A DNA stretch of 64,000 nt, taken from positions 160,001-224,000 of the forward strand of contig CAVYRF010000002.1 in assembly GCA_963770895.1 (NCBI GenBank), read 5' to 3'. Position numbers and translations under genes: made by a program. This document shows, piece by piece, positions 32,546 through 54,672 of this stretch (positions are counted from its first letter, which is position 1; each line of letters begins with the position of its first letter). The DNA comes from an uncultured Acidobacteriota bacterium. Lineage in GTDB: Bacteria > Acidobacteriota > Thermoanaerobaculia > Multivoradales > UBA5704. The notes under the pieces are model-generated. The model saw only the letters and a list, made by a program, of their open reading frames with translations. It was not told the origin of the DNA and did no database searches.

Positions 32546-33360
32546 AAGGCGCGCAGGACCTCGTAGAGCTCTGGGTGCCTGCGCTGGAGGTTGGCCCCCT
32601 GTTCGAAAAACGCCTCGGTCACCACGGCGAAGAACTCGGCAGGGTTGGTGGCGCCGTAGGCATCGATGTCGCTCGGCCTCTGCTCGGCGACGCGGTCGAG
32701 CAGATCCTGGTACTCGGCGCCCAGGGCGTGCGCCCAGGCCGAGTAGAGGGCGCGCGTGCCGAGGTCGGGCGCACCGTTGAGGGCACCGTCCTCGGCGTCG
32801 AGCTGGTGGGCGAACTCGTGCAGCACCACGTTGTGACCGTCGTGCATGTTCGACGCGCCGCTCTTGACGGCGTCCCACGCCAGCACCACGGCGCCGCGGA
32901 CCCACGATTCGCCGAGCCGCCCTTGATCGCCCACCACCTCCAGGCCACCGAGATTCTGGCGCACATCCTTGACGATGTAGGCGCTCGGATAGACCAGGAT
33001 CGAAGAGAGGTCGGGGTAGTAGTCGGTCTCCCGATGCAGCAGCAGCACGCAGGCTTGCGCGGCGATGGTGAGCTTGATTTCCTGGGTGACATGCAGGCCG
33101 CCGCAGCCCTCGAACCGTTTCTCGGCCAGGAAAACCTGAATGTGTCCTTCGAGCTCGCGCCGGTCCTCCTCGGACAGGGTGGCGGCGTAAGCAACGTTGC
33201 GCAACACCATGGCGCGCTGGGCGGCCGACAGCGGCTGTGCGCGGAGCTTGGCCCGGCGCTTTTTCTTGAAGAGAAAGTCGAGCAAGCCGTCGATTTTATC
33301 AGGAACCACCGGCCGGCGCGCCCTGAAACCGGAGACCGCGATCGTTGGTAGTAGAGGCAT
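32521..33360 (-). CDS. MtfA-like zinc peptidase (M90); start uncertain
   Basis: F.GC.GL, IAAQAC, ILVYP, GESW, DGHNVVLHEFAHQLD, YGATNPAEFFAV.TE.FFE. Confidence 0.9.
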   Translation of the reverse strand: MPLLPTIAVSGFRARRPVVPDKIDGLLDFLFKKKRRAKLRAQPLSAAQRAMVLRNVAYAATLSEEDRRELEGHIQVFLAEKRFEGCGGLHVTQEIKLTIAAQACVLLLHRETDYYPDLSSILVYPSAYIVKDVRQNLGGLEVVGDQGRLGESWVRGAVVLAWDAVKSGASNMHDGHNVVLHEFAHQLDAEDGALNGAPDLGTRALYSAWAHALGAEYQDLLDRVAEQRPSDIDAYGATNPAEFFAVVTEAFFEQGANLQRRHPELYEVLRAFYRQDPAG

Positions 33361-33410
33361 CGGGCACCGCTGCCCGGATGGCGACGACGTGGCGGCGCGG
33401 AGGTGAGGCG

Positions 33411-35879
33411 ATGGGAAAGCGGCTCCAGGTGGCGATGGCACGGCTGGGCGGTTGGCTCACCGGCGGCGAGCTGCTGCAGGATCTACGCTTCACCCGCCGC
33501 ACGCTGCGGCGCGATGCCAGCTTCACCGTGTTCGCGCTGCTCACCGTCGGGCTCGGCATCGGCGCCAGCGCCACCATCTTCAGCGTGGTCAACGCCCTGC
33601 TCCTGCGGCCGCTGCCGTTCCGCGACCCCGGCCGCCTGGCGTGGGTCGCCAACGGCGGTACGGAGGGTCCGTCGAGCGTCACCATCCAGGTGGGCCATTT
33701 TCTCGATCTCGCGGCGCAAACCCGGTCGTTTTCGGAGCTGGCCGCCTACTACGCGTTCTATGGCGACGGCGATAGCAAGCTGACCGGCGCCGGCGAGCCC
33801 GAACGCCTGACTGCGGTGCCCGTGACGACCAATTTCTTTGCCCTCCTGGGGGTCCCACCACGGCTGGGACGGCTTTTCGCCAACGGTGAGGAGCAGGCGC
33901 GCTGGAACGCGCCGCAGGTGGCGATTCTTTCCTTCCGCCTGTGGCAACGGCGCTTCGCCGCCGACCCCGCCATCGTCGGCCAGCGGCTGGTGCTCAACGG
34001 CGGGCCGGTCACCGTCGTCGGGGTGCTGCCGGAATCGTTCGACTTCGGCGCCGTCTTCACCCCCGGCAGGCAGGTGGATCTTTTCATCCCGATGCCGCTG
34101 ACCGCGCAGACCGACCGCCAGGGCAACTCGCTTTCGCTCCTGGGCCGCCTGCGGCCCGGTGTCGCGGTCGACCAGGCGCAGGCGGAGCTGACCATCCTGG
34201 CCCGGCAGATCTCAAACCGCCATCCGGAACGCAACGAGGTGGCGCCGCGGGTGAGCGCGCTCGACCGCCACGTCAGCGGCTCCTTCCGGCCGGCGCTCGC
34301 CGTGCTCGCCGGCGCCGTCGGCGCGGTGATGCTGATCGTCTGCGCCAACCTGGCGAACCTGCTGCTGGCGCGCGCCGCGGCGCGCCAGAAGGAGATGGCG
34401 ATCCGCACCGCGCTGGGGGCGGCCCAGGGCAGGTTGGTGCGCCAGATGCTGACCGAAAGCCTGGTCCTGTCGTGCGGCGGCGGCGCGCTCGGCCTGCTGC
34501 TTGCCGTCGCCGGCACGCGCTCGCTGGCACATCTCGACGCCTTCCGCATTCCGCTGCTGGCGAGCGCCCACGTCGACGCCGCCACCGCCGCCTTTGCCGT
34601 CGTGGTGGCCGTCCTGGCCGGCCTGGTCTTCGGCCTGGTGCCGGCCTTCCAGGCCCTGGCGGCGGCGCCCCACGACGCCCTCAAGGAGAGCCATCGCGGC
34701 TCCAGCCAGGGTGCCCGCCAAGCCTGGATCCGCCAGGCCCTGGTGGTCGCCGAGGTGGCGTTCGCGTCGGTGCTGCTGGTGGGCACCGGCCTGCTGGTGC
34801 GCAGCTTCCTGCGGGTGCTCGACGTCCAGCTCGGCTACCAGCCGGCCAAGGCGCTGGCGCTGCGCATCGACGTCGGCGCCCGCAGCCTCACCCAGGCGCA
34901 GCGCAACGCCCACTACGACGAGGCCCTGCGACGCGCCAGGTCCGTCGCCGGCGTCGAAGCGGCGGCGCTGACCGACGTGCTGCCGCTGGGCGGCGACCGC
35001 AGCTGGGGCGTCGCCGCCGCCGGCCAGGTCTATCCGGACGGCAGGACCCCCTCCGCCTACGTGCGCATCGTCTCCGACGGCTACCTGCGGACCGCCGGCA
35101 TCCCGCTGCGCGCCGGGCGCGACCTCTCGCCCCGCGACACGCCGGCAAGCGAGCGCGTCATGCTGGTCAACGAGACGCTGGCGCGCACCCTCTGGCCCGG
35201 CGAAAACCCCATCGGCAGGATGGTGACCCAGGACGGCGGCTGTCGCGTCGTCGGCGTCGTCGGCGACGTTCGCCACAGCGCCCTCGAACAGACCGCCGGC
35301 GCCGAGATGTACCTGCCGCTGCGCCAGACCAACGACTACTCCCGCCTCGACCTGGTCGTCCGCTCCGCCCTCTCGCCCGTCGCCGCGGCGGCCGCCCTGC
35401 GCCGCGAGCTGCTGCCGATCGAGCCCAATCTCCCCGCCCAGGAGGCGCGCCCTCTCCAGCGCCTGGTCGACCAGGCGATCTCGCCGCGCCGCTTCCTGGT
35501 TTTCCTGCTCGGCGGATTTTCCGCCTTCGCCCTCGTCCTCGCCGCGCTCGGCATCTACGCCGTGATCTCCTACGCCGTCACCCAGCGCACCCAGGAGCTC
35601 GGCATCCGCGTCGCCCTGGGCGCCCAGCGCGCCGGCTTGCAGCTCCGCATCCTCTGCGAAACCCTCGCCCTCGCCGGCCTCGGCATGCTCCTCGGCACCT
35701 TCGCCTCCTGGAGCCTGGCCCGCACCCTGCGCGGCCTCCTCTTCGGCGTCACCGCCGCCGACCCGGCGACCTTCGGCGCCACCCTGGCCCTCCTCACCGT
35801 GGTCGCCGCCCTCGCCGGCTACCTCCCTGCCCGTCGCGCCTCCCGCATCGATCCCATCCTGGCCCTGCGCGGCGATTGA
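33411..35879 (+). CDS. ADOP-type duplicated MacB/FtsX ABC permease
   Basis: GGAGG RBS; QDLRF, GIGASATIFSVVNA, CANLANLLLAR, QRTQELGIRVALGA, PARRASRIDP. Confidence 0.92.
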   Translation: MGKRLQVAMARLGGWLTGGELLQDLRFTRRTLRRDASFTVFALLTVGLGIGASATIFSVVNALLLRPLPFRDPGRLAWVANGGTEGPSSVTIQVGHFLDLAAQTRSFSELAAYYAFYGDGDSKLTGAGEPERLTAVPVTTNFFALLGVPPRLGRLFANGEEQARWNAPQVAILSFRLWQRRFAADPAIVGQRLVLNGGPVTVVGVLPESFDFGAVFTPGRQVDLFIPMPLTAQTDRQGNSLSLLGRLRPGVAVDQAQAELTILARQISNRHPERNEVAPRVSALDRHVSGSFRPALAVLAGAVGAVMLIVCANLANLLLARAAARQKEMAIRTALGAAQGRLVRQMLTESLVLSCGGGALGLLLAVAGTRSLAHLDAFRIPLLASAHVDAATAAFAVVVAVLAGLVFGLVPAFQALAAAPHDALKESHRGSSQGARQAWIRQALVVAEVAFASVLLVGTGLLVRSFLRVLDVQLGYQPAKALALRIDVGARSLTQAQRNAHYDEALRRARSVAGVEAAALTDVLPLGGDRSWGVAAAGQVYPDGRTPSAYVRIVSDGYLRTAGIPLRAGRDLSPRDTPASERVMLVNETLARTLWPGENPIGRMVTQDGGCRVVGVVGDVRHSALEQTAGAEMYLPLRQTNDYSRLDLVVRSALSPVAAAAALRRELLPIEPNLPAQEARPLQRLVDQAISPRRFLVFLLGGFSAFALVLAALGIYAVISYAVTQRTQELGIRVALGAQRAGLQLRILCETLALAGLGMLLGTFASWSLARTLRGLLFGVTAADPATFGATLALLTVVAALAGYLPARRASRIDPILALRGD

Positions 35880-35964
35880 ACCGCCGCCGCCTTGGCGCGG
35901 CCCCGGAGCGGGTCTCCGTCGACCATGCGGTCGAGTGCTAAGATGTTGAAAATTGATTCCTCCG

Positions 35965-38900
35965 ATGCTCTCCACCTTGCGGCGGTCGCCTCCGCGGCCT
36001 GGGCGCGGCACACGACGGATCTGCGGCGCTTTCCTGGCGGCGCTGGCGTGCTGTGGGTCTGCCTGCGGCGCCGGCGCCGGGCGCGGCGGGGCCGCGAGCA
36101 GGGTGCACGTAGTGGTGGCGGGAGAGAATTTCGAGCGCTCGCCGCGTGCCGGCCAAAGCGACGAATACGAGCTGCGCCTCCGGGCGGGCCAGTTCGTCCA
36201 CGTCGTCGTCGACCAGCTCGGTATCGACGTCCTGTTGCGGCTCTATGCGCCGGCGGGCAGGCAGCTGACCGAGGTGGACAGCCCCACCGGCACCACCGGC
36301 CCGGAGCGGGTCGCCGTGGTGGCTCCGGTGGCGGGCCGCTACCGCTTGCAGGTCTCGGCGACGTCCGCCAAGCCGGGCGGGCGCTACGCGTTCCACGTCG
36401 TCGCATGGCGGGACGCGACGCCCGCGGATCGCCTGGAGGTGGCGGCGGAAAGGGCCTTCGATCGCGGTGAAGGGCTGCGCCGGGCGACGCTTCTGCGCGA
36501 CGCCCTGCCGCGCTACCAGCAGGCCCTGGTGGCCTGGACGTCGCTGGGCAACGTGGCCGGGGAGGCGCTGGCGCTGAATGGGCTGGGCGAGATGCACCAA
36601 CGGATGGGCGAGATGCACCACCGGCTGGATGAGCTCGATGCCGCGGTGGCGCTCTACCGCCAGGCGCTCAGGACGTTGGCGCCCACCGGCGACATCAGGT
36701 CCCAGGCGGGGATCTGCAACCGGATGGGCAGGGCGCTGCTGGACCTGTTTCGCTTCGACGAGGCGCTCGCCGCACACCGCCGTGCCCTGGCGCTCTTCCG
36801 CCAGCTCACCGATCGCAAGGGCATCGCCACGGCGCTCAACAACGAGGGCAACGTCTACCTCTGGCTGGGCAAAAACCAATCGGCCCTGGACGCCTTCGAC
36901 GCGGCGCTGCCGCTGTGGGACCGCCGCACCGAGACGCACGAGCGGATGCTCACCCTGATCAACATGGGCAACGTGCTGACCGCCGAAGAGCAGCTCGACG
37001 AAGCGGCGGCGGTCTATCGGGAGGCGATCGCAGAAGCGATCGCAGAAGCCGGCCGCCTGCACGATCCAGCCGCCCTGGCAAAGGTCCTTTCGCGCGAGGG
37101 CTTTCGCCTATACGCCGCTGGGCAGCCCGCCCTCGCCATCGACCGCCTGCGGCAGGCGATCGACCTGCATCGCCAGCTGCACGACCCGGTGGGCTACGTC
37201 GACGATCTGCTCAATCTGGGCGTCGCCTACCTCAAGCAAGGAGACCTCCGCCACGCCGGCGATGCCCTGTCGCAGGCCCGCCAGCTCTACCGGCAGGCGG
37301 GCAATCGCCACGGCGAGGCGATGGCGCTGCTGGACCTGGGACGCCTGGCGTACACCGCCGGCGATTTCCCGCGCGCCCTCGCACTGTACACCGCGGCCAG
37401 GCAGCTCTTCGTCGCCGTGCGCGGGCGCCAGGGCGAGGTGTCGGCGATCTATGGCTGCGCGTCCACGCTCCTCCGGCTCGGGCGGCCGGCGGAGGCCCGC
37501 GACCAGATCGCCCTGGCGGTCGACGGGCTGGAAAACCTGCGCGGCGAAACGGCGAGCCGGTCGCTGCGTCAGTCGTACTTCGCCTCGCGGCAGAACTATT
37601 GGGACCTGTACGTTCAGACACTGATGCTCCTGGACGCCAGGCATCCCGGCGGCGGCTACGCGGCGCAGGCTTTCGCAATCAGCGAGCGCCGCCGGTCGCG
37701 CAGCCTGCTGGACCTTCTGGGCCAGGCCGCGGCGGCTGCCCCCGCCGGCGGCGAGCGCGGCGCAGCCGCCGAGGAGAACGAGCTGCAGCAGCAATTGGAC
37801 GCCATCGACCGTCACCGGCTGCTGTTGATGGACCGCCAGGGGAGCGCCGCCGCGGTTGCCGCTCTCGATCGATTGCAGCAGCAAAAGGTCATCCAGCTCG
37901 ACCGGGCGCGGGCGCGCCAGGCAAGCCAGGACGATCTGACGGCGGCGCCGTCCCCTGCCGCGGCGCTTTCGCTGACCGCGGTACAGGCGCTGCTCGGCCG
38001 CGACGACATGCTGCTCGAATACGCCCTGGGCGAGCCCACCAGCTACCTCTGGGCGGTGACGCACAGCTCCTGCAAGAGTTTCCGTCTGACCGGCCGCGCT
38101 GCGATCGAAGCCGCCGCCCGCGCCGCGACCGACCTCCTGCGGCGCACCAGTGTCAAGGCCCAGACGGCGCAGGAGCAAGCTGCTCGCCAGCTGAGCTCCC
38201 TGGTGTTGGCGCCGGCCGCCGCCGAGCTGGGGCAGGCGCGGCGCCTCCTGATCGTTGCCGACGGCGATCTGCTGCTGGTGCCGTTTGCGGCCCTGCCGGA
38301 CCCCGCGGCGCCGCCATCCGAGACGTCGCCGCTCGTGGTGCGGCACGAGATCGTCACCCCGCCCTCGGCCACGGTCCTGGCCGCGCTGCGCCGCCGGTCG
38401 CGCCAACAACCCACGCCGCCAGCCGGCGTCGCGGTCTTTGCCGATCCCGTGTTTCGGTCCGACGACCCCCGCCTGGCGCCGGCGGCCCTGCCGGCGGGCG
38501 CGGCGCCGGGGCCATCCCTGCCGCCGGCGGAACCGCCGGGTCTCGGCCTGCTGCTGCGCGACTTCCACCTCGCCGGTCTCGCGCGCCTGCCCGCCACCGC
38601 CGGCGAGGCAGCGGCGATCGCCCAGGTCGCGCCATCGGGCACGGTCGTCGCGATGGGTTTCGCGGCAAGCCGCGAGCGCGTCCTGGACGGGTCGCTGCGC
38701 CGGTTTCGCTACCTCCACTTCGCCACCCACAGCCTGGTGGACGCGCTGCACCCGGACCTTTCGGGAATCGTGCTCTCGCTGCGCGACCAGCGCGGCCAGC
38801 CACAGGACGGGATCCTGCGTCTCTACGAGATCTACGACCTCGATCTGCCGGCGCGGCTGGTGGTGCTGAGCGGCTGCGAGACCGGTCTCGGGCAGCCGGT

Positions 38901-39168
38901 CGCCGGCGAAGGCCTGGTCGGCCTCAGCTGGGGCTTCCTGCACGCAGGGGCGCAGGGCGTGGTGGTGAGCCTCTGGAACGTCCAGGACGACAGCACGGCC
39001 GAGCTCATGCGCCGCTTCTACACCGCGCTGTTCGCCGGGCACGCCTCCGCGCCGGCGGCGCTGCGCCAGGCGCAGCTGTCGATGCTCGCGAGCACCGGCT
39101 GGCGCGCCCCCTATCACTGGGCCGGGTTTGTCTTCACCGGCGATTGGGAAGCCGCCGGGAAGCCTTGA
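35965..39168 (+). CDS. PPC-TPR-CHAT domain protease (His/Cys dyad present)
   Basis: PPC-like beta domain, multiple TPRs, LHFATHS, LVVLSGCET, SLWNV.D, PYHWAGF. Confidence 0.92.
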   Translation: MLSTLRRSPPRPGRGTRRICGAFLAALACCGSACGAGAGRGGAASRVHVVVAGENFERSPRAGQSDEYELRLRAGQFVHVVVDQLGIDVLLRLYAPAGRQLTEVDSPTGTTGPERVAVVAPVAGRYRLQVSATSAKPGGRYAFHVVAWRDATPADRLEVAAERAFDRGEGLRRATLLRDALPRYQQALVAWTSLGNVAGEALALNGLGEMHQRMGEMHHRLDELDAAVALYRQALRTLAPTGDIRSQAGICNRMGRALLDLFRFDEALAAHRRALALFRQLTDRKGIATALNNEGNVYLWLGKNQSALDAFDAALPLWDRRTETHERMLTLINMGNVLTAEEQLDEAAAVYREAIAEAIAEAGRLHDPAALAKVLSREGFRLYAAGQPALAIDRLRQAIDLHRQLHDPVGYVDDLLNLGVAYLKQGDLRHAGDALSQARQLYRQAGNRHGEAMALLDLGRLAYTAGDFPRALALYTAARQLFVAVRGRQGEVSAIYGCASTLLRLGRPAEARDQIALAVDGLENLRGETASRSLRQSYFASRQNYWDLYVQTLMLLDARHPGGGYAAQAFAISERRRSRSLLDLLGQAAAAAPAGGERGAAAEENELQQQLDAIDRHRLLLMDRQGSAAAVAALDRLQQQKVIQLDRARARQASQDDLTAAPSPAAALSLTAVQALLGRDDMLLEYALGEPTSYLWAVTHSSCKSFRLTGRAAIEAAARAATDLLRRTSVKAQTAQEQAARQLSSLVLAPAAAELGQARRLLIVADGDLLLVPFAALPDPAAPPSETSPLVVRHEIVTPPSATVLAALRRRSRQQPTPPAGVAVFADPVFRSDDPRLAPAALPAGAAPGPSLPPAEPPGLGLLLRDFHLAGLARLPATAGEAAAIAQVAPSGTVVAMGFAASRERVLDGSLRRFRYLHFATHSLVDALHPDLSGIVLSLRDQRGQPQDGILRLYEIYDLDLPARLVVLSGCETGLGQPVAGEGLVGLSWGFLHAGAQGVVVSLWNVQDDSTAELMRRFYTALFAGHASAPAALRQAQLSMLASTGWRAPYHWAGFVFTGDWEAAGKP

Positions 39169-39257: not shown

Positions 39258-41525
39258 ATGATCGAACCTTCGCGCCAGCTGGTGCTCGGCGTCCCGGTCG
39301 AAGGCCGTCTGGAAGGCAAGAACGCGGACGTCTTCGATGTCCACCTCGAAACGGGTCAGTTCGTCCACCTGGTCGCCGAGCAGCTCGGCCTGGACGTCAA
39401 GCTGCGCCTGTTCAACCCCGGCCATCAGCTGTTGACGGAGGTGGATAGTCCGATCGGCAGCCGAGGCGCCGAAGAAGTGACGCTGGTCGCGGCGGCGAGC
39501 GGGCTCTACCGGGTGGAGGTGAGCGCGGGCGACGCCAAGCCGGGCGGCGGCACGTATCGCCTGCGGATCGAATCCCTGCGCGCCGCCACCGAGGCCGACC
39601 GCAGGACGGCGACGGCGGAGCACATGTTCAACTCCGCCGAGGTGCTGCGCCGCGGGGGCCAGACGCAGCAGGCCCTGCTGGACTACCGCCTCGCCTGCCG
39701 TGAATGGGAGGCATTGGGCGATCGGCCGCGCCAGGCGACCTGCCACTATCGGATGGGCTGGATGGAGCACGCCCTGGAGAAGCCACCCCATCTCGAGGAG
39801 GCCGACAGACACTTCCAGGCGGCCCTCGATCTGCTGGGCGAAACCGATCCGTCGCTCCAGGCGACGATCTGGAACCGCCGCGGCAGGGTCCTGCTGGCGC
39901 TCGGCCGGGTGGATCCGGCCCGCGCCGCGCACGAGCGTGCGCTCGCGCTGTTCCGCAACCTCGGGGACCGCGACGGCGAGGCCGAGGCGCTGCAAAATCT
40001 CGGCATGGTCGAAAGCCGCGGCGACGCTGCCCTTGCCAAGCAGCACTTCGTGAGCGCGGTCGCGTTGTGGCAGCAGCTGGGCAACATCAAGGAAGAGAAA
40101 TACACCCGGAGCAGCCTGGCGAGACTCCCGCGGCACACCGGCATGCCGGCGGCGCCGTCGTCCGCGGCGCTGCCGGGCAGCGGTGCACCGCTGGCGGTCC
40201 AGGACGTCGCGGAGCGCCACGACGCGGCCTTCGCTCCCATCCTGGACGCCGGCACCCTGGTGCTGCGCTACGAGCTGGGCGACGAGCACGGCACCCTGTG
40301 GACTGCGACAGCCGCCGGTCCGCTGGGCCAACACCCGCTGCCCGGGCGCGCCGCGGTCGAGGCGGTGGCCAGCCGGCTGTTCGCGGCGGTGCAACAGGAC
40401 GGCGCGCAGGCCCAAGCGGAATGGCAAGCCGCCGCCACCGATCTCAGCCGTATGTTGCTCGCACCGGCGGCGGCCCACTTGATGGAGCGCCGTCTGGTGG
40501 TGGTAGTGGACGGTTGGCTTGAGCGCGTGCCGTTCGCCCTGCTGCCGGAACCGCGGCCGGCGGCCGGCGAGCCGGCCCAGGAGGCCGCGCAGCCGCTGCT
40601 CGAGCGCCACGAGATCGTCTACCTGGCGGCGGCGACCGCGGCGGCCGTGCTCGACGGGCCATCGCGACGCCAGGGCGGGTTGAGGGAGCCTGGGCCGGCG
40701 GTGGTGGGCGCTCCGGTGCTGCGCGCCGACGATCCCAGACTGGCCGGCACCGCTGCCGGCGGCACCGCGGGCCGCCCAGAGCTGCCGGCGGACCTTGTCG
40801 CGGCGCTTGCCGGCGTCGGCCTGGAGGAGCTGCCGGCGCTGCCATTCAGCCTGGCCGAGGCGGAGGCGATCGTCGAGCTCATGCCGCAGCTCGCACCGGT
40901 CCACGCCCTGGGCCTGGACGCCAACCTGGACCTCCTGCGGGGCACCGCGCTGCGCGGTTTCCGCATCTTGCACCTGGCGGTCCTGGCCGTCCTGGCGAAG
41001 GCAGGGTCGGGCCTGGTCGTGTCCTGCTTCGATGCCAGCGGCAGGCCACGCCCCGGCTTTCTGCGCCTCGCGGACCTGGCCCGCCTGAACCTTCCGGCGG
41101 ATCTGCTGGTGGTGACCGGATCGCGGCTGTCCGGGGAAGCCGGCGTGGGCGGCCTCGAGCTGGTGGGCGCGGCAATGCAGGCCGGCGCGGCCAAGGTCGT
41201 GACGTCCCTGTGGAGCGTCGAGGACCAGAGCGCCGTCGAGCTGATGAAGCACTTCTACAAGGGGTTGCGGCAAGGCGCCCTGGAACCGGCGGCGCTGCGG
41301 CAGGCACAGCTTGCCGTGGCCGCGGATGCGCGGTGGCACGCCCCCCGCCATTGGGCCGGATTCCTGTTTTCGGGCGACTGGCGCCAGGGCCGCCGGGGGC
41401 ACCGGCCTGGCGGCGGCACCATCGAAGCCGACGACAAGGGCGGCACCGGCAGCTCGGGGCCGCAGGGCAACGACATGCCTCCTCCCGACGAGGACGTCAG
41501 CTATGACGAAGGGAGCGGGCAATGA
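39258..41525 (+). CDS. PPC-TPR-CHAT paralogue lacking catalytic residues (pseudoprotease)
   Basis: Same architecture but LHLAVLA replaces LHFATH and VVTGSR replaces VLSGC; retains SLWSVED and HWAGF; acidic tail. Confidence 0.85.
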   Translation: MIEPSRQLVLGVPVEGRLEGKNADVFDVHLETGQFVHLVAEQLGLDVKLRLFNPGHQLLTEVDSPIGSRGAEEVTLVAAASGLYRVEVSAGDAKPGGGTYRLRIESLRAATEADRRTATAEHMFNSAEVLRRGGQTQQALLDYRLACREWEALGDRPRQATCHYRMGWMEHALEKPPHLEEADRHFQAALDLLGETDPSLQATIWNRRGRVLLALGRVDPARAAHERALALFRNLGDRDGEAEALQNLGMVESRGDAALAKQHFVSAVALWQQLGNIKEEKYTRSSLARLPRHTGMPAAPSSAALPGSGAPLAVQDVAERHDAAFAPILDAGTLVLRYELGDEHGTLWTATAAGPLGQHPLPGRAAVEAVASRLFAAVQQDGAQAQAEWQAAATDLSRMLLAPAAAHLMERRLVVVVDGWLERVPFALLPEPRPAAGEPAQEAAQPLLERHEIVYLAAATAAAVLDGPSRRQGGLREPGPAVVGAPVLRADDPRLAGTAAGGTAGRPELPADLVAALAGVGLEELPALPFSLAEAEAIVELMPQLAPVHALGLDANLDLLRGTALRGFRILHLAVLAVLAKAGSGLVVSCFDASGRPRPGFLRLADLARLNLPADLLVVTGSRLSGEAGVGGLELVGAAMQAGAAKVVTSLWSVEDQSAVELMKHFYKGLRQGALEPAALRQAQLAVAADARWHAPRHWAGFLFSGDWRQGRRGHRPGGGTIEADDKGGTGSSGPQGNDMPPPDEDVSYDEGSGQ

Positions 41526-42955
41526 GCGATGCGGTGTATTTCAACGGTCTGGACGGGGACTCGGGCAGCTATCTGCTGGATCCCAGGACCGATGCGGAGA
41601 TCGCAACCGCTCTGCTCGCGCAGCGGCGGGAGCGGCGGCTCCCGGAGGAGTCGGAAAGCTTTCGCGGCCCGATCCTGGGTGTGGACGCGCAGAACCTCGA
41701 GCAGGCAGGTTGGGGGTTGGTGATGCCCGAGGATGTCGGCGACGGGCCCGCCGCGGAGCATTGGCGTGCCGTGCGCCGCGCGCTCGAGCCGCTTTGCGAG
41801 TTGCGCGCCCGCGAGGCCGGCCCGCTGTACCGCGACAGCCTGACCCAGCCGCGGCCCCTGTTCTATCGCCCGAAGGAGAGCGCGGAAGATTTCCTCTACC
41901 GCTATTGCGCAAGGCCCGAAGATCCGGTGGACCCTGCGGAGGTGCCCTACTATCTGCTCCTGGTCGGCGACCCGGAGACGATCCCCTTCGAGTTCCAGTT
42001 CGATCTCGACGTTCAATACGCGGTGGGGAGGATCTGCTTCGACCGCCCGCAAGACTACGCGGCCTACGCGACCGCAGTGGTGAACGCCGCCGGAGGCGAG
42101 GTGCAGCGGCAGCGCGAGGTGGCGATCTTCGCCGTCGAAAGGGACCCCACCACCTGCCTCACCGCGAACAGTCTGGCGCGGCCCCTGGCGGAAAACCTTG
42201 CCGCCGTGCGAGACGGCTGGCGGCTCCATACGCGCTTCGGTCCGGATGCCGACCGGGCCCAGCTCGCCGCCCTGATGCAGGCGGCGGAGCGGCGCCCCGC
42301 CCTGCTGTTCACCGCCAGCCACGGCGTGGGGTTTCGCGGCCAGTCCGAGCCACGGCAGAAGCTGCGAGAGGAGATGCAGGGGGCGCTGGTCTGCCAGGAC
42401 TGGGAGGGGCCCGGAACGCCGCTCGTGCGGCAGCATTACCTTGGGGCGCCGGATCTCGAAGACGCTCACGTGGACGGACTGATCGCGATGTTCTTCGCCT
42501 GCTACAGCGCTGGCACGCCGCAGTTCGACAGCTTCGAGACCGACGACCAGCGTCAGCCGCTGCAGATCGCCGCCCGGCCATTTGTCTCGCGGCTGGTGCA
42601 GCGCATGCTCAGCCATCCGAACGGCGCGGCGCTGGCGGTCATCGGGCACGTCGATCGCGCCTGGACCCATTCGTTCGGCGACGGCGCCTTCGAACGGTCC
42701 AGGATCGCGGTGTTCAACGACCTGGTCCAGGGCCTCCTGCAGGGCCTCCGGGTGGGATATGCAATGGAGCCGTTCGCATTCCGCTACGCGGCGCTGGGCA
42801 ACAAGATGTCGAACATCTGGGAGTCGCTGGGGACCTACGGTTCCCCCTTCACCCTGGACGACATCGGCAGCGCCTGGCGAAACCGCAACGATGCGCGCAA
42901 CTTCGTGCTCTTCGGCGACCCCGCCGTGCGGCTCGCCGTCGGCGAGTGGGGGTGA
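41522..42955 (+). CDS. Clan CD (C25/gingipain-like) cysteine-peptidase-fold protein, no signal peptide
   Basis: ATGA overlap with the CHAT paralogue; YYLLLVGDP..IP, YAVGR, FTASHG, FFACYS, LFGDPAVRL. Confidence 0.72.
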   Translation: MSDAVYFNGLDGDSGSYLLDPRTDAEIATALLAQRRERRLPEESESFRGPILGVDAQNLEQAGWGLVMPEDVGDGPAAEHWRAVRRALEPLCELRAREAGPLYRDSLTQPRPLFYRPKESAEDFLYRYCARPEDPVDPAEVPYYLLLVGDPETIPFEFQFDLDVQYAVGRICFDRPQDYAAYATAVVNAAGGEVQRQREVAIFAVERDPTTCLTANSLARPLAENLAAVRDGWRLHTRFGPDADRAQLAALMQAAERRPALLFTASHGVGFRGQSEPRQKLREEMQGALVCQDWEGPGTPLVRQHYLGAPDLEDAHVDGLIAMFFACYSAGTPQFDSFETDDQRQPLQIAARPFVSRLVQRMLSHPNGAALAVIGHVDRAWTHSFGDGAFERSRIAVFNDLVQGLLQGLRVGYAMEPFAFRYAALGNKMSNIWESLGTYGSPFTLDDIGSAWRNRNDARNFVLFGDPAVRLAVGEWG

Positions 42956-43101
42956 ACCGCCGGCTGGGCGCGCCGCTCGGCACGCCGGCGGCCCGCGTGT
43001 CCCGGCGACGTGGGCGGGGGGCACTGGAAAAGGAAAGGATCTTCGGTTGGGTGCTCGGCTCCGATCTCGGGGATACGAGCAAGGTCGAGGAGGAGGAAGC
43101 C

Positions 43102-43296
43102 ATGAAGAAGCATGCGCAGAGCTCCAAGGGACGCATCCTGGGACGGCGGCTGGCGCGCGAGCTGCCGAATCAGGAGCTCGGCCGCGCCGCCGGCAGCAGC
43201 GCAATCGGAGTGTGGACGTACACGCTGCTCTATCCGTCCGATCCCGGCGGCCCGAGCTGGGACAGCAGCGGCGGCGGTGGGACGATCCTGGTCTGA
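43102..43296 (+). CDS. 64-aa graspetide (microviridin-like) RiPP precursor peptide
   Basis: AGGAGG RBS; MKKHAQSSKGRILGRRLARELPNQELGRAAGS-SAIGVWTYTLLYPSDPGGPSWDSSGGGGTILV; immediately upstream of ATP-grasp ligase. Confidence 0.85.
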   Translation: MKKHAQSSKGRILGRRLARELPNQELGRAAGSSAIGVWTYTLLYPSDPGGPSWDSSGGGGTILV

Positions 43297-43322
43297 GGCG
43301 CCCACACCCCGACACCATCGGC

Positions 43323-43346
43323 CCCGGCCGGCAGCCGCCGGCCGGG
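43323..43346 (+). other. Perfect 10-bp GC hairpin between precursor and ligase (mRNA stabiliser/attenuator)
   Basis: CCCGGCCGGC-AGCC-GCCGGCCGGG, no U-tract. Confidence 0.6.
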
Positions 43347-43401
43347 TGCTCTGCATGATGCGCCCTGGCCCCTTCCCGTCGAGCGCTTTCCCCCTCCCGC
43401 C

Positions 43402-44550
43402 ATGCCCAGATACCTGATCGCGACCGAGCCGCGCGACCTGCACGCGGTCGAGGTGGCGATGGCGCTCGAGGAGCGCGGCGCCCAGGTTGCGCTCTGGATG
43501 GGGGCCGACTTCCCCACGCGGCTCGCGGGGTCGATCGAGGTGCGGGACGGGCGGACGTCGTGGGAGCTGCGCGCGGCGGGCCAGGCTGCGGTCACGCCGC
43601 CGTTCGACGGCGTGTGGATGCGGCGGCCGACGGCGCCGCGGCTGCCGGAGGGCCTGCACCCGGCGGACGTGGCGGTGGCCGAGCGCGAGACGCGCGAGCA
43701 CGTTGCCGGGCTCTACTGGCTGGCGGCGCCGGAGGCGTTCTGGGTCAACCCTCTCGCCAGCCGCGGGCGCGCCGAAGCCAAGGCGGTGCAGCTCGCCCTG
43801 GCGGCGCGCCTCGGCTTCCGCGTGCCGCCGACGCTGCTGTCGAACGACCCGGCGCGCATCCGCGCCTTCCTGGCCGAGCACCGCGGGAGCGCGATCTACA
43901 AGGCCTACTACCCCGCCGGCTGGGAGGGCGCCGCGACCACGGCAGTCCTGGGCACCGCGGAGGTCGCGTCCGAGGACCTGCCCGACGACGAGATCCTGCG
44001 CGCCACGCCCGGGATCTTCCAGGCGCGCGTCGACAAGGCCTACGAGCTGCGGGTGACGGTCTTCGGCGGCTTCCTTGCCGCGGCACGCCTCGACTCACAG
44101 GCGGTCGAGGAGGCGCGCCTCGACTCGCGCGCCGGCGGCCCGCGGCTGCCGATCCGGCCAGCCGAGCTGCCGCCGGCGCTCGCGCGGCGCTGCTTCGACC
44201 TGCTCGAACAGCTCGGCATCGTTTTCGGCTGCTTCGATTTCGCCGTCACCCCGGCAGGCGAGCCGGTGTTCTTCGAGGTCAATCCGGCCGGGCAGTTCCT
44301 CTGGGTCGAAGAGGCCTGCCCCGACATCCCGCTGCTGGCGCCCTTCGTCGACTTCCTGCTCGCCCGGCGCCGCGACTTCCAGTGGAGCCCCCATCCCGGC
44401 GCCATCCGCCACGCCGACCTGGTCGGCGCCGCGCTCCGCCGCACCCAGGAGCTGGCCGCCCGCCACGTCGAGCCGCCGCCCCCCTTCGTCCACCCCGAGG
44501 CGGACGCCGGAGAGGGCGAGGGAAAGCGTGACGGAGAGGGATTACGGTAA
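43402..44550 (+). CDS. MvdC/MvdD-family ATP-grasp RiPP macrocyclase
   Basis: FWVNP, KAVQL..A...GF.VP.TLLSNDP, IYK, IFQ..VDKAYELRVTVFG, FGCFDF, FFEVNPAGQFLWVE. Confidence 0.92.
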   Translation: MPRYLIATEPRDLHAVEVAMALEERGAQVALWMGADFPTRLAGSIEVRDGRTSWELRAAGQAAVTPPFDGVWMRRPTAPRLPEGLHPADVAVAERETREHVAGLYWLAAPEAFWVNPLASRGRAEAKAVQLALAARLGFRVPPTLLSNDPARIRAFLAEHRGSAIYKAYYPAGWEGAATTAVLGTAEVASEDLPDDEILRATPGIFQARVDKAYELRVTVFGGFLAAARLDSQAVEEARLDSRAGGPRLPIRPAELPPALARRCFDLLEQLGIVFGCFDFAVTPAGEPVFFEVNPAGQFLWVEEACPDIPLLAPFVDFLLARRRDFQWSPHPGAIRHADLVGAALRRTQELAARHVEPPPPFVHPEADAGEGEGKRDGEGLR

Positions 44551-44560
44551 GGTACAGGCC

Positions 44561-44803
44561 ATGAGCGACCCCCACACACCGCCGCCAACGCCGCCGCCCG
44601 CCGGCGACGGAACCCACGCCCAGCCGCCGGCGCCCGAGTCCGTCTCTCACCTCCAGGACCGCATGCGCAGCATCGCCGCCCGCCTGCGCGACGCCGCCCA
44701 GGACCTGGGCGCCGAAGTCATGGTCGACATCCCCAGCCGCCTGGGCGATCACTCGGGCCTGCTGATCGCCCTCGCCAACGAGCTCGAGCAGCTGGTGAAG
44801 TAA
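44561..44803 (+). CDS. Small hypothetical protein directly downstream of the ATP-grasp gene
   Basis: ATG 10 nt after the ligase stop; Pro-rich N-terminus and amphipathic helices; GC3-rich codons. Confidence 0.6.
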   Translation: MSDPHTPPPTPPPAGDGTHAQPPAPESVSHLQDRMRSIAARLRDAAQDLGAEVMVDIPSRLGDHSGLLIALANELEQLVK

Positions 44804-44919: not shown

Positions 44920-45531
44920 TCGAGGGTCGGCATGCATTTCGTGGCCAGCGCCGCTGGGCACGCGGAGATGATCTGGGCCACCTTCGAGCACGTCGCCAAC
45001 GCGCCCGACGTCACCTATTCGTACAACTCGACCAGCGGCGCCAAGACCGTCACCCAGAACACCGCGGGCACCTGGCTGTTTGCTGCCAGCGGCTCCACCG
45101 GCCCCTGGAACCAGGTGCACATGAGGGCCAACGGCAGCACTATCAACGTCATGGAGAACACGCCGAGCGACACGCTGCGCATGAATCCCTGGGGATCCTC
45201 GCCCAACCAACCGCCCAATCCCCTGGCGACCGCCGCGGCATCCAACACCGACATCATTTCGATCAACCAGAGCGTGCTCACCCAGCTCACGGTGGGCGAC
45301 GTGCGGGCCAACTACGTGATGCGCGGCTCGACCTGGACCGAATTCGGTCCCCCCGACCTCCCCTTCCCCAGCGGCATCGAAGTCGGCACCAGCCAGCTGG
45401 CCAACACCACCATGGAAACCTATCAACAGGGCACGGGCACCTTCAGCAAGAGCGTCAACTGCTTCTTCTGCCACAACACCAACACCACCGCCGTCAGCCA
45501 CGTCTTCTCCGACATCAAGCCGCTGTTCTGA
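44920..45531 (+). pseudogene. C-terminal fragment of a c-type heme (CxxCH) protein
   Basis: VGMH...WATFEH, LANTTMETY.Q, NCFFCH; no signal peptide or N-terminal part. Confidence 0.6.
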
Positions 45532-51431: not shown

Positions 51432-51778
51432 TGAGCGACGAAACCGATGCAATCCAGGACAGGTCGGAGCTGTTGCAGGGGACGCTCGACCTGATGGTGC
51501 TGCGGACCCTGGCGCTCGCGCCGATGCACGGCTACGGCATCGCGCAGCGCATCCAGCAGATCTCGCGCGACGTGCTGCGCGTCAACCAGGGCTCGCTGTA
51601 TCCGGCGCTGCTGCGCCTGGAGCAGCAGGGCTGGATCTCGTCGGCCTGGGGCACTTCGGAAAACAACCGGCGGGCGCGCTTCTACTCGCTGACGCGGGTC
51701 GGACGGCGCCAGCTGGCGGTTGAAACCGAGCGTTGGGAACGGTTTTCCCAAGCCATAGGCCGGCTGCTCGAAGCGTGA
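51431..51778 (+). CDS. PadR family transcriptional regulator (acidobacterial type)
   Basis: LLQGTLDLMVL, HGYGI..RI, QGSLYPAL.RLE..GWI...WG.SENNRRA..Y.LT. Confidence 0.95.
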   Translation: MSDETDAIQDRSELLQGTLDLMVLRTLALAPMHGYGIAQRIQQISRDVLRVNQGSLYPALLRLEQQGWISSAWGTSENNRRARFYSLTRVGRRQLAVETERWERFSQAIGRLLEA

Positions 51779-54672
51779 TGCGCACCGTGCGATGCTGGTT
51801 GATGCGCGGCGCCGGCTTGTTGCGCCGGCGCCAGCTGGACGCTCGTCTGGACGAGGAGCTGGGCTTCCACCTGGAGATGCAGACGCGCGACAACCTGTCG
51901 CGCGGCATGAGCCCGGCGGCGGCGCGGCGCGCGGCCCGGCTCAGCCTGGCGCCTGGCGGCTCGTGCGAAGCGGTGCGCGAACAGTTCCGGGCGCAGCGCG
52001 GCGTGCCGATGGTGGAGACGCTGGTACAGGACCTGCGCTACGCCCTGCGCATGCTGCGGCAGAGCCCGGGCTTCACCTGCGTGGCGCTGCTGTCGCTGGC
52101 ATTCGGCATCGGCATCAATTGCGCCATCTTCAGCGTCGTCGACGCCCTGCTGCTCAAGCAGCTGCCGGTGCGCGACGCCGGCACGCTGCTGTTTCTCAAC
52201 CGGCGGGCGCCCTCCGGCGAGCTGCCGGCGCTGTTCTCCTACCCCGCGTTCCAGCACCTCGCCGAGGCGCGCTCGGTCGCCACGGACATGGTGGCCGTGA
52301 CCGGCGATTTTCGCGCCGTGGTGCACAGCGCGGCCGAGAGCGGCGACTCCCGGCCGGCCATTGCCGCCAGCGGCCTCAGCAGCGCCGGCGGCGCCACAGC
52401 CATGCCCGCTGGCGCCGACGCCGGCGCCGATTTGCCCACTTCCTCCGACACCGCCGCGGCGCCGGCGTCAAACGCCACCGGCGAGCTGGTTTCGGGCAAC
52501 TTCTGGAGCGCCCTTGGCGCCGGCACCGCGGCGGGCCGCACGTTTACCGCCGCCGAAGACACGGTGCCGGGCGCCCACCCGGTGGCGGTGCTCAGCTACG
52601 GCTACTGGCAGCGCGCTTTCGGCCGCGATCCGCGCGTCGTCGGCAGGGTGCTGCGGATCAACGGCGCGGCGGTCACCGTGGTGGGCGTCGCGGCGCGCGG
52701 CTTTGCCGGCGTCTATGCGGATTGGCAGCCCGACCTGTTTCTGCCGCTCACCCTGCGTGACGTGCTCAAGTACCGGGGCGACACCTATACCGACGGCCCG
52801 GCGGACCCCCACGCGCCGGTCTGGAACCAGATCAACTACCACTGGCTGCAGCTGATCGTCCGCCGCCGGCCGGCGACCGATGTGCGCCAGGTCGGCGCCC
52901 TGCTCAACCTGCTGTTCGAGCGCGACAAGCAGAGCCAGGCGGCGACCCGCACGGACGCCCAGGACCGCAGGGAAACGCTGGGCCAGACGATCGTGCTGCA
53001 ACCGGCGGCGCGCGGCCTGGCGATGACGCGCGAGCAGCTGGGGCAGCCGCTGCTGATCCTGATGTCGGTGGCCAGTGTGGTGCTGCTGATCGCCTGCGTC
53101 AACGTGGCCAACCTGCTGCTGGCGCGCGCCGACCGGCGGCGCAAGGAGATGGCGGTGCGGCTGGGCATCGGCGCCGGCCGCGGCCGCCTGGTGCGCCAGC
53201 TGCTGACCGAGAGCCTGGTGCTGTCCGGCCTTGGCGGCGCGCTGGGACTCCTGCTTGCCTCGCAGGGCAGCCGCCTGCTCATCGGCCTGATGCAGAACAG
53301 CTCGCCGCCGCTGGCGCTGGACGTGGCGCCGGACGGCCGCAAGCTGGCCTTCGCCGGCGTCGCGGCGCTGTTGACGGCGGTGGTGTTCGGCCTGGCGCCG
53401 GCGCTGCAGGCGACCCGCGTGGACCTGGCCGCGGCGCTCAAGGACGGCGCCAAGGCGCTGACCGGCAACGCCCGGCGCCGCGCTCGCCGCTGGCTGCCGC
53501 CGCTCGGATCGCTCCTGGTCGCGGCGCAGGTCGCGCTGTCGCTGTTGCTGCTGATCGGCGCCGGCCTGTTCGTGCGCAGCCTGCAGAACTTGACGGCGGT
53601 CGCCCCCGGATTCGCCAGCGACCAGCTGATCCAGGCCTACATCGATCCGCACCTGCTCGACTACGACGCCGCCCACCGCAGCGCGCTCTACGATCGCCTG
53701 CGCGAGCGGGTGGCGGCGATGCCGGGGGTGCGCTCGGCCAGCCTGTCGCTCAACCCGCTGTTCAGCAACATCCAGCGCACCAGCAACGTTTCCACCCCCA
53801 GCTCCCCCGCCGAACAGGGCGCCGACGAGGACACCGAGTCGCAGACCGTCACCGCGGACTACTTCGCCACCGTCGGCATGCAGCTGCTCGCCGGCCGCGG
53901 CTTCGCGCCGCAGGACCGGCCGGACTCGCCGAAGGTGGCGGTGGTCAACCAGGCTTTCGCCCGCCGCTTCCTGGGCGGCGCCGCGGTGGGCCAGCGTTTC
54001 GGCCTGGGCGGCCGCCGCCACAGCCGCGACTACGAAGTGATCGGGCTGGTCAAGGACGCCAAGTACCACTCCCTGGCGGAAGGGGCGCACCCGTTGGTCT
54101 GGTTCGCATTTTCCCAGAACCCGGAGGACGTGCTGCGCGACCTGGAAGTGCGGGCGCAGGCCGGCGCCGCCATCGCGGTGGCAGGGCAGCTGCGCCGCGT
54201 CATCGCCACGACCAGCCCCGACCTTGCCGTCTTCGGCATCGCCACCATGACCGACCGGCTGTCGCACTCGCTTGCCCGCGAGCGGGCGGTGGCGCGCCTC
54301 ACCGGCTTTTTCGGCCTGCTGGCGCTGCTGCTCGCCGCGGTCGGCCTGTACGGCGTGATGTCCTACAGCGTCGCCCGGCGCACCAGCGAAATCGGCCTGC
54401 GCATGGCGCTGGGCGCACCGCGCGCCCAGGTGCTGGGGCTGGTGCTGCGGCAGACGGCGCAGCTGATCGCCATCGGCGTCGCCGCCGGGCTGGCGGCGGC
54501 GCTGGCGGCCACGCGCGTCGCCGCCAGCCAGCTGTTCGGGGTGACCGCCCACGATCCGGCAACCATCGCCACCGCCACCGTGGTGATGGCGACCGTGGCG
54601 CTCGCCGCCGGCTTCCTGCCCGCCCGGCGCGCCGCCGACACCGATCCGATGGTGGCATTGCGCCGCGACTGA
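51778..54672 (+). CDS. ADOP-type duplicated ABC permease with N-terminal prefix domain
   Basis: LDEELGFHLEM, QDLRYALR, CVNVANLLLAR, RRTSEIGLRMALGA, PARRAA..DPM; TGATG coupling to PadR. Confidence 0.93.
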   Translation: MRTVRCWLMRGAGLLRRRQLDARLDEELGFHLEMQTRDNLSRGMSPAAARRAARLSLAPGGSCEAVREQFRAQRGVPMVETLVQDLRYALRMLRQSPGFTCVALLSLAFGIGINCAIFSVVDALLLKQLPVRDAGTLLFLNRRAPSGELPALFSYPAFQHLAEARSVATDMVAVTGDFRAVVHSAAESGDSRPAIAASGLSSAGGATAMPAGADAGADLPTSSDTAAAPASNATGELVSGNFWSALGAGTAAGRTFTAAEDTVPGAHPVAVLSYGYWQRAFGRDPRVVGRVLRINGAAVTVVGVAARGFAGVYADWQPDLFLPLTLRDVLKYRGDTYTDGPADPHAPVWNQINYHWLQLIVRRRPATDVRQVGALLNLLFERDKQSQAATRTDAQDRRETLGQTIVLQPAARGLAMTREQLGQPLLILMSVASVVLLIACVNVANLLLARADRRRKEMAVRLGIGAGRGRLVRQLLTESLVLSGLGGALGLLLASQGSRLLIGLMQNSSPPLALDVAPDGRKLAFAGVAALLTAVVFGLAPALQATRVDLAAALKDGAKALTGNARRRARRWLPPLGSLLVAAQVALSLLLLIGAGLFVRSLQNLTAVAPGFASDQLIQAYIDPHLLDYDAAHRSALYDRLRERVAAMPGVRSASLSLNPLFSNIQRTSNVSTPSSPAEQGADEDTESQTVTADYFATVGMQLLAGRGFAPQDRPDSPKVAVVNQAFARRFLGGAAVGQRFGLGGRRHSRDYEVIGLVKDAKYHSLAEGAHPLVWFAFSQNPEDVLRDLEVRAQAGAAIAVAGQLRRVIATTSPDLAVFGIATMTDRLSHSLARERAVARLTGFFGLLALLLAAVGLYGVMSYSVARRTSEIGLRMALGAPRAQVLGLVLRQTAQLIAIGVAAGLAAALAATRVAASQLFGVTAHDPATIATATVVMATVALAAGFLPARRAADTDPMVALRRD

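Follow-up and report, generated by a model that had tools for sequence, protein, structure and literature searches.

A 64,000-nucleotide stretch of DNA from an uncultured Acidobacteriota bacterium (contig CAVYRF010000002.1, positions 160,001 to 224,000; hereafter the window) carries a two-gene cassette that encodes a 64-residue precursor peptide and, directly downstream, an ATP-grasp ligase. Judged by ligase family, precursor conservation and adjacency of the two genes, the cassette belongs to the graspetides, the omega-ester class of peptides made on the ribosome and modified after translation (RiPPs). In our overall reading, to which we assign a probability of roughly three in four, the leader of the precursor would dock on the ligase, two nested Thr-Asp esters would be formed in the core, the leader would be removed in trans and the product would inhibit proteases.

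Precursor, ligase and distribution of the cassette

The elements of the cassette, all on the + strand, are the following.

43087..43099, +, ribosome-binding site GAGGAGGAGGAAG, read directly from the sequence; two overlapping AGGAGG, ending 2 nt 5' of the ATG
43102..43296, +, graspetide precursor gene, 64 aa plus stop (MKKHAQ...TILV); ATG at 43102, stop codon ending at 43296
43132..43164, +, leader recognition motif R11-L21 (RILGRRLAREL), placed by the alignment of 37 sequences, the complex model and a genome motif scan
43162..43197, +, double-glycine-type processing region L21-S32; L26 invariant, G31 at least 90% conserved, cleavage presumed after S32
43198..43293, +, predicted core peptide S33-V64, delimited by the presumed processing site
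43216..43263, +, ring-forming segment T39-D54 (TYTLLYPSDPGGPSWD); predicted donors T39 and T41, predicted acceptors D47 and D54
43402..44550, +, ATP-grasp graspetide synthetase, 382 aa; PF21068 MvdD pre-ATP-grasp domain (E 2.7e-8, above cut-off)
43897..44013, +, part of the ligase predicted to bind the leader (residues 166-204, E191-D192 among them), placed by the interface in the complex model

The last AGGAGG of the ribosome-binding site is followed by a gap of 5 nt before the ATG of the precursor, and a spacer of 105 bp separates the precursor from the ligase open reading frame (ORF; 43402-44550). An open frame of 661 aa (41311-43296) has the precursor as its tail and overlaps a Peptidase_C25-like gene (41522-42955) that is read in a different frame; this long open frame is spurious, an artefact of the 69-75% GC content, and a composition check showed no GC anomaly at the cassette. 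The first-pass annotation, made from the letters alone, had described a 64-aa ORF with an AGGAGG ribosome-binding site, forming the tail of a longer ORF and lying 105 bp before the ligase, as well as a core without Lys or Glu, the lack of PFFARFL and the presence of one ligase. All of these are borne out: the core holds no Lys and no Glu, PFFARFL is missing from all 64 residues and the window contains one MvdD-type pre-ATP-grasp domain, the other three matches in the genome lying elsewhere.

Although neither Pfam nor NCBIfam has a family for the 64-aa precursor, a search of a collection of 5.8 billion proteins retrieved 36 homologues (E≤1, best 1e-28) of 55-87 aa, all of them named hypothetical and, wherever a taxon is named, from Thermoanaerobaculia. 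The peptide of the window is not itself in this collection, its best match having 86% identity, and the ligase is present there (P0037); some relatives are found in NCBI nr, as hypothetical proteins. In an alignment of the 37 sequences (the window peptide and its 36 homologues), K2, R11, I12, L13, G14, R15, R16, A18, R19, E20, L26, T39, T41, Y44, P45 and D47 are invariant, and M1, K3, L17, G31, G36, P51 and D54 are conserved in at least 90%. Residue S46 is variable, being replaced by Ala or Pro in a sister subfamily. Comparison of five orthologous DNA copies revealed 18 synonymous and 2 non-synonymous codon changes in the leader motif (residues 11-20), and 17 synonymous and 8 non-synonymous changes in core residues 38-54, whereas over the whole precursor non-synonymous changes exceed synonymous ones. 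Selection therefore falls on precisely these two segments in the precursor frame. The precursor gene is real, beyond a chance ORF. That the ORF is open by chance, or encodes some unrelated small protein instead of a RiPP substrate, as its lack of a Pfam or NCBIfam family and the absence of the window's own peptide from the protein collection might suggest, has a negligible probability in view of the 36 homologues, the purifying selection in precisely the leader motif and the core, and the ligase adjoining it at every locus described below. As leads only, a search of the ESM Atlas placed lantibiotic and ComC leader clusters at 0.85-0.88; the nearest clusters were unnamed Acidobacteriota peptides (0.90).

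A pattern scan in which each prokaryote species was represented by one genome yielded 16 further loci, all in metagenome-assembled genomes (MAGs) titled Thermoanaerobaculia, Thermoanaerobaculaceae, Acidobacteriota or Acidobacteria. The ligase starts shortly 3' of the peptide in 16/16 of these loci, one ligase being cut by a contig end and another split over two frames. When the 711 ORFs of the 17 loci were clustered, no other neighbour was common to more than 5 loci, out-of-frame shadows of the ligase excepted, and none of the conserved accessory genes sought beside the cassette (protease, exporter, methyltransferase, second ligase) was found. Since there is no other conserved neighbour, the unit consists of two genes.

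At 57-77% identity, the ligase was recovered from 7 of 60 related genomes, in 8 places. When 400 genomes sampled evenly across the phylum were compared, with no more than 15 candidates scored in each, the matches outside the genome of the window were only weak or leader-only (8 of 401 genomes, its own included). This genome encodes exactly three peptides with the leader, each of which adjoins one of the three closest ligase paralogues, and the window ligase has 47-48% identity with its two nearest paralogues (L002 and L003). In all, the paralogues outside the window are located at C2:4.47 Mb, C2:2.09 Mb, C1:0.38 Mb, C1:0.85 Mb and C1:1.84 Mb. In a tree of 32 ligases (quick search, midpoint root; the partial L053 and the frameshifted L063 left out), the ligases group by core type, with Shimodaira-Hasegawa-like approximate likelihood-ratio test values of 100 for type A, to which the window belongs, 95 for A+B, and 99 both for C and for the four P-x-D types together.

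L002 (G000:C2:4464439-4468530) and L003 (G000:C1:378034-382035) are two further cassettes of the same superfamily in the genome of the window. Their precursors stand directly 3' of the ligase and have a leader of the form MKK...RILGR[RK]LA...GG-type, followed by unrelated, Cys/Asp-rich cores (45 and 48 aa). Genomes of the same taxonomic family hold up to 9 graspetide-type ligase matches each, with at least one match in 27 of the 36 others, which suggests that such cassettes have expanded across the lineage.

The ligase is related to the known graspetide synthetases. Among curated hidden Markov models (HMMs), TIGR04187 scored 213 bits (cut-off 350), TIGR04185 164 (cut-off 425) and TIGR04184 157 (cut-off 475), with residues 5-318 aligned. 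Its closest solved structures are MdnB (5ig8, E 3.6e-39), AMdnB, MdnC (5ig9, 2.4e-33), CdnC (2.6e-27, the fourth best), 9bou and PsnB (2.2e-7). Across an alignment of 15 ligases, K167, R74, R75, R217, E292 and N294 are invariant, as are D192, L193 and P194; E-x-N is the usual metal and nucleotide motif of ATP-grasp enzymes. In PsnB, R72 and R213 are reported as conserved substrate-binding arginines. The public names of the 225 ligase relatives at E≤1e-30 are restricted to 'hypothetical protein' and 'glutathione synthase/RimK-type ligase-like'. The cassette thus combines what is expected of a graspetide locus, namely an MvdC/MvdD-like ligase with a pre-ATP-grasp domain and an adjoining precursor in which the donors precede the acceptors.

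Relation to known graspetides

With marinostatin of Algicola/Alteromonas, the window cassette shares a Lys-less, ester-only bicyclic core (as predicted here), a single ATP-grasp ligase and the T-x-x-Y-P-S-D segment. Marinostatin E, ATMRYPSDSDEDGFN, is reported to be bicyclic and to inhibit chymotrypsin and subtilisin (PMC10125368), and the marinostatin stretch T-M-R-Y-P-S-D-S-D is very close to the T-L-R-Y-P-P-D-x-D of clusters related to the window peptide. The leaders, however, differ, PFFARFL in marinostatin being matched in the window family by RILGRRLAREL and a double-glycine-type end. The second ring of marinostatin is Ser8-Asp11; its donor is the Ser before Asp, whereas in the window family this Ser is not conserved and the donor is likely the invariant Thr39. 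The second Asp also stands differently, 2 residues after the first in marinostatin and 7 after it in the window peptide. Of the marinostatin-type features, the ester-only T-x-x-Y-P-S-D core and the single ligase are therefore present in the cassette, and PFFARFL and the D-S-D/Ser-donor pattern are absent.

The microviridins (MdnA, MdnB, MdnC; group 1) have in common with the cassette the YPSD segment, the Thr-Asp spacing, the ligase fold family and E191-D192 of the leader site. They differ in having a TxKxPSD core with a Lys lactam, a Glu/Asp pair, PFFARFL and two ligases, whereas the window has T-L-L-Y-P-S-D-P-G-G and one ligase. We found neither the Lys core motif nor PFFARFL nor a second ligase, and the ligase lies below the MvdC and MvdD cut-offs (164 of 425 and 157 of 475 bits). 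Chryseoviridin (CdnA/CdnC, from Chryseobacterium) shares the single ester-forming ligase and the lactam-free, microviridin-like core, but its precursor is multicore, comes from Bacteroidota and has a leader of the microviridin type, whereas the window precursor is single-core with a different leader. Plesiocin (PsnA/PsnB, group 2) is likewise made by a single ligase, and its nested, hairpin-like double lactones, as described, have the topology predicted for the window peptide. The plesiocin core, however, consists of TTxxxxEE repeats, its leader is reported to bind through Phe15, and PsnB is only a distant relative of the window ligase (E 2.2e-7). Finally, the best-scoring curated HMM for the window ligase, at 213 bits, is that of the SAV_5884-type ligases (TIGR04187) of actinobacterial graspetides and graspimiditides, but the score falls below the cut-off of 350 and the host phylum differs. 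No graspetide-type methyltransferase was detected in the window and none above cut-off in the genome, where the best TIGR04188 score was 108.8 against 380 bits (nearest at C2:278848). The ligase thus does not reach the TIGR04187 threshold, nor does a PIMT-type O-methyltransferase accompany it.

To place the window peptide among its wider relatives, the profile of the 37 precursors was compared with 1.84 billion cluster representatives, which gave 64 matches at E≤0.001, 62 of them peptides of 42-80 aa. By regular expression, the leader is present in 60 of these 62 peptide clusters, a core of the form donor-x-T-x3-P-x-D/E in 31 and T-x-x-[YF]-P-x-D in 22. In the 31 clusters with such a core, the next acidic residue after P-x-D stands at +2 in 19, at +5 in 6, at +7 in 1 and elsewhere or nowhere in 5. 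The +7 spacing is that of the window's type, in which a six-residue insert separates the two acids (D47-PGGPSW-D54). Typical related cores read T-x-T-L-R-Y-P-P-D-x-D, and the D-x-D clusters mostly have Pro where marinostatin has Ser. On these comparisons of core sequences, we place the window peptide in a marinostatin-like family, as a variant with an insertion (D-PGGPSW-D).

The core of sister subfamily C reads x-W-T-L-T-D-P-P-D-G-P-Y-R-D-H, and the position aligned with Thr39 is Cys in 9 of its 10 members (L055, L057, L059-L064 and L037) and Thr in one (L056). If position 39 is the outer donor, the Cys copies of subfamily C would carry a natural thioester (thiolactone) ring, a linkage that, according to Carter et al. 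(2026), has so far been reported only as non-native. A further sequence, P0171, is a Lys-rich protein of 301 aa from another organism, with seven T-x-x-Y-P-S-D-D-G-G-E repeats and a leader of another type or none. Its Y-P-S-D-x-G-G resembles the core of the window peptide, and it looks like a multicore microviridin- or marinostatin-like precursor.

The novelty that the first-pass annotation had claimed for the cassette holds in part. Lys-less, ester-only relatives with a single ligase are known, marinostatin being the case in point; what appears new is the leader, together with the clade of the ligase and the ring pattern predicted for the product. It is quite possible, at not far short of even odds, that the family already figures in a published in silico catalogue, for instance as one of the 43 groups defined with RODEO and a sequence similarity network, and is catalogued but uncharacterised. 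Carter et al. (2026) report 21,584 predicted graspetides in 43 groups, of which groups 27, 28 and 35 consist of synthetase and precursor only, and the presence of some relatives in NCBI nr fits such a catalogue entry. On the other hand, full-text searches with the family motifs, which covered the texts of papers and not the contents of the catalogue groups, brought up a single graspetide paper, one in which the marinostatin sequence is printed. Among the texts searched, no paper joined 'graspetide' with Acidobacteriota or Thermoanaerobaculia, one review mentioning Acidobacteria once, and the genomes mined by Makarova et al. (2022) are given as those of March 2016, whereas all 16 loci come from MAG records whose accession series look later. 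The literature search gave no sign of any characterised family member.

More tentatively, and at clearly less than an even chance, we propose that these peptides constitute a distinct graspetide group confined to Thermoanaerobaculia. Such a group would comprise about 60 clusters and be marked by a double-glycine-type RILGRRLA leader docking at the PFFARFL site, by a T-x-T-x-x-Y-P-x-D...D nested double lactone with an outer ring of 11-16 residues, and by a thiolactone in the Cys subfamily. Graspetides are small, resist proteolysis and in many cases inhibit proteases potently, although one enzyme suffices to make them. A microviridin- or marinostatin-like loop on a different leader-ligase pair would be useful both for the study of evolution and for the re-engineering of leader recognition and ring choice, and the cassette offers a minimal two-gene system from Acidobacteriota, a phylum with few characterised natural products. 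As both the enzymes and their chemistry are familiar and dozens of groups have been predicted, the gain is incremental unless novelty is borne out for the topology or for the variant with a Cys donor.

Proposed leader recognition, ring pattern and processing

The ligase and the precursor, each with its own alignment, were modelled as a complex in three runs. The interface score ipSAE was 0.78 (0.77-0.79 over the runs) against 0.00 for the best control; of 80 solved complexes, 58 attain the mark applied to this score, as do 2 of 110 mismatched pairs. At least 36% of contacts are common to the runs, and those placed with confidence are made by residues 8, 10-23 and 26 of the peptide with residues 166-204 and 244 of the ligase. 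Within this region, E191-D192 of the ligase align with E191-D192 of MdnC, which have been named as leader-recognition residues (PMC12848669), and on reading the two sequences ILGRRL has the pattern of FFARFL, hydrophobic-hydrophobic-small-Arg-x-Leu. Docking of RILGRRLAREL on the site where PFFARFL binds in microviridin ligases is thus supported in silico. The first-pass annotation had put RILGRRLAREL forward as a possible ligase-recognition motif, a proposal strengthened by the conservation of RILGRRLARE in the 37 sequences and by its placement at the MdnC-equivalent leader site in the model.

The microviridin-type lactones are reported to link Thr(i) with the acid at i+6 and Ser(i+5) with the acid at i+8 (PMC12848669). 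We assign Thr41-Asp47 as the first ring because it has the microviridin spacing in the same Y-P-S-D context and both residues are invariant, and we predict an outer Thr39-Asp54 ring because Ser46 is not conserved while Thr39 and Asp54 are. As the core lacks Lys, no lactam is possible. The peptide is probably an ester-only and bicyclic graspetide, with Thr41-Asp47 nested inside Thr39-Asp54. The Thr41-Asp47 ester had been foreseen from the letters of the window, and the invariance of T41 and D47 at the microviridin spacing agrees with it. For the second ring, Thr39 or Ser46 had been offered as the donor to Asp54; Thr39 (invariant) and Asp54 (at least 90%) fit this part of the prediction, whereas Ser46 is disfavoured as a donor, being Ala or Pro in the sister subfamily. 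The conservation expected for TxxYPSD is accordingly found at T41, Y44, P45 and D47, all invariant, and fails at the variable S46.

A less likely alternative, though one with an appreciable probability, is that the same cassette makes other rings, either the crossed pair Thr39-Asp47 and Thr41-Asp54 or a single Thr41-Asp47 ring, with Thr39 and Asp54 serving target binding or folding. Conservation yields two donors and two acceptors rather than their connectivity, the rings of microviridins are described as interlocked and not nested, and both monocyclic and bicyclic microviridins exist. The spacing of T-x-x-Y-P-S-D, however, is identical to that of the Thr-Asp ring of microviridin and marinostatin. 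Thr39 (invariant) and Asp54 (at least 90%) are conserved about as strongly as the inner pair, and position 39 in the sister group is occupied only by Thr or Cys, both of which are nucleophiles. We therefore prefer the nested pair; if true, such nested Thr-Asp connectivity would be one not described for microviridin-type cores.

The end of the leader resembles a double-glycine processing site. In the double-glycine register, positions -12, -8 and -7 are L, E and L, position -4 is hydrophobic or small, and G at -2 is followed by G, A or S at -1; the leader of the window peptide fits it with L21 (-12), E25 (-8), L26 (-7), A29 (-4), G31 (-2) and S32 (-1). The paralogous precursors have a true GG at the position of G31-S32. 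The double-glycine-type leader described in the first-pass annotation is thus upheld by the register, the invariant L26, a G31 conserved in at least 90% and the GG of the paralogues. Three proteins combining C39 and ABC domains are encoded in the genome, far from the locus (C1:1.78 Mb, C2:2.97 Mb and C1:0.57 Mb), and we conjecture that the leader is removed in trans. As for activity, the residue after the ring Thr, position 5 of microviridins, is reported to fill the S1 pocket, Leu or Val there leading to inhibition of subtilisin and elastase (PMC7823629). The residue of the window peptide that matches this position is Leu42, and by analogy the product is probably a serine-protease inhibitor.

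In the pathway that we propose, the leader helix RILGRRLAREL of the precursor would dock on ligase residues ~166-204 with their acidic pair E191-D192. The ligase, by the chemistry of its enzyme family, would then phosphorylate Asp side chains and close lactones with Thr hydroxyls, so that a seven-residue T-x-x-Y-P-S-D ring (Thr41-Asp47) and an outer Thr39-Asp54 ester would give a nested bicycle. The leader would be cut after Gly31-Ser32, probably by one of the C39-peptidase ABC exporters encoded elsewhere in the genome, and the product, with Leu42 filling the S1 pocket, would inhibit serine proteases in the manner of a substrate.

Several observations weigh against this pathway or against parts of it. 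The ligase lies under every curated family cut-off (TIGR04187, TIGR04185 and TIGR04184), and no RNA run was listed that covers the stretch. In the complex model the precursor has a predicted local distance difference test score of 44-47, below 50, and the core has no confident placement; the complex score itself may reflect memory of, or likeness to, the solved MdnC-leader and PsnB-leader complexes. The core holds just two acidic residues, and it is from conservation that the second ring is predicted, so that the same data also fit crossed rings (39-47 with 41-54) or one ring only. In the 16 loci, neither a peptidase nor an exporter recurs next to the cassette, and a C39 peptidase-ABC exporter is absent both from the window and from the surroundings of these loci. 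Moreover, related copies are out of frame in the precursors of L058 and L039 and in the ligase of L063. These could be assembly errors or decay, and several of the assemblies may carry indel errors.

Spacer and neighbouring genes

The features around the two genes of the cassette are the following.

35953-39165 and 39258-41525, +, two tandem TPR-CHAT proteins, the second with a PPC domain
41522-42955, +, Peptidase_C25-like gene (weak match, 27 bits), overlapping the second CHAT gene by 4 nt
43324..43345, +, perfect 9-bp GC hairpin CCGGCCGGC-AGCC-GCCGGCCGG without a U-tract, in the 105-bp spacer (centroid structure)

The spacer hairpin was considered as an intrinsic terminator or attenuator and rejected, as it has no U-tract, its fold is not significant and it is absent from the terminator listing. 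Although the hairpin is present in the centroid structure, the z-score of the whole spacer was -0.93, and it is not a family feature, since the spacers of the relatives measure ~20-130 nt.

Clan-CD-like proteases are thus encoded by the TPR-CHAT and C25-like genes immediately upstream of the cassette, the C25-like gene ending 146 bp 5' of the precursor. A part for the C25-like peptidase and the TPR-CHAT proteins in the pathway, as leader peptidase or as the protease targeted by the product, is very unlikely. They are on the strand of the cassette with their 4-nt overlap (41522/41525) and this short distance to the precursor, and proteases are reported beside several graspetide groups (Carter et al., 2026), but homologues of both are missing from the ~6 kb around the cassette in the 16 other loci and in 8 loci taken from relatives, four of these 8 being the same contigs as four of the 16. 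We hence retain the reading in which the precursor and the ligase alone make up the unit.

Downstream of the ligase, 11 nt after its stop, is an 80-aa ORF (44561-44803, +) with a Pro-rich N-terminus followed by a helical-looking part, and a 199-aa ORF (44932-45531, +) stands in a dip of the GC content (0.65). Neither has a family in Pfam or NCBIfam, and homologues of these two ORFs, like those of the TPR-CHAT and C25-like genes, are found beside none of the 16 and 8 loci. MacB/FtsX-type permeases at 33345-35876 and 51733-54669 (+) flank the region and are not conserved beside the cassette elsewhere. Further upstream (26985-32542, +), the window encodes a 1409-aa SbcC/RAD50-like ATPase followed by a protein with DUF3323 and DUF2399, a pair that we take to be of the kind found in Wadjet-type (JetC/JetD) anti-plasmid systems.

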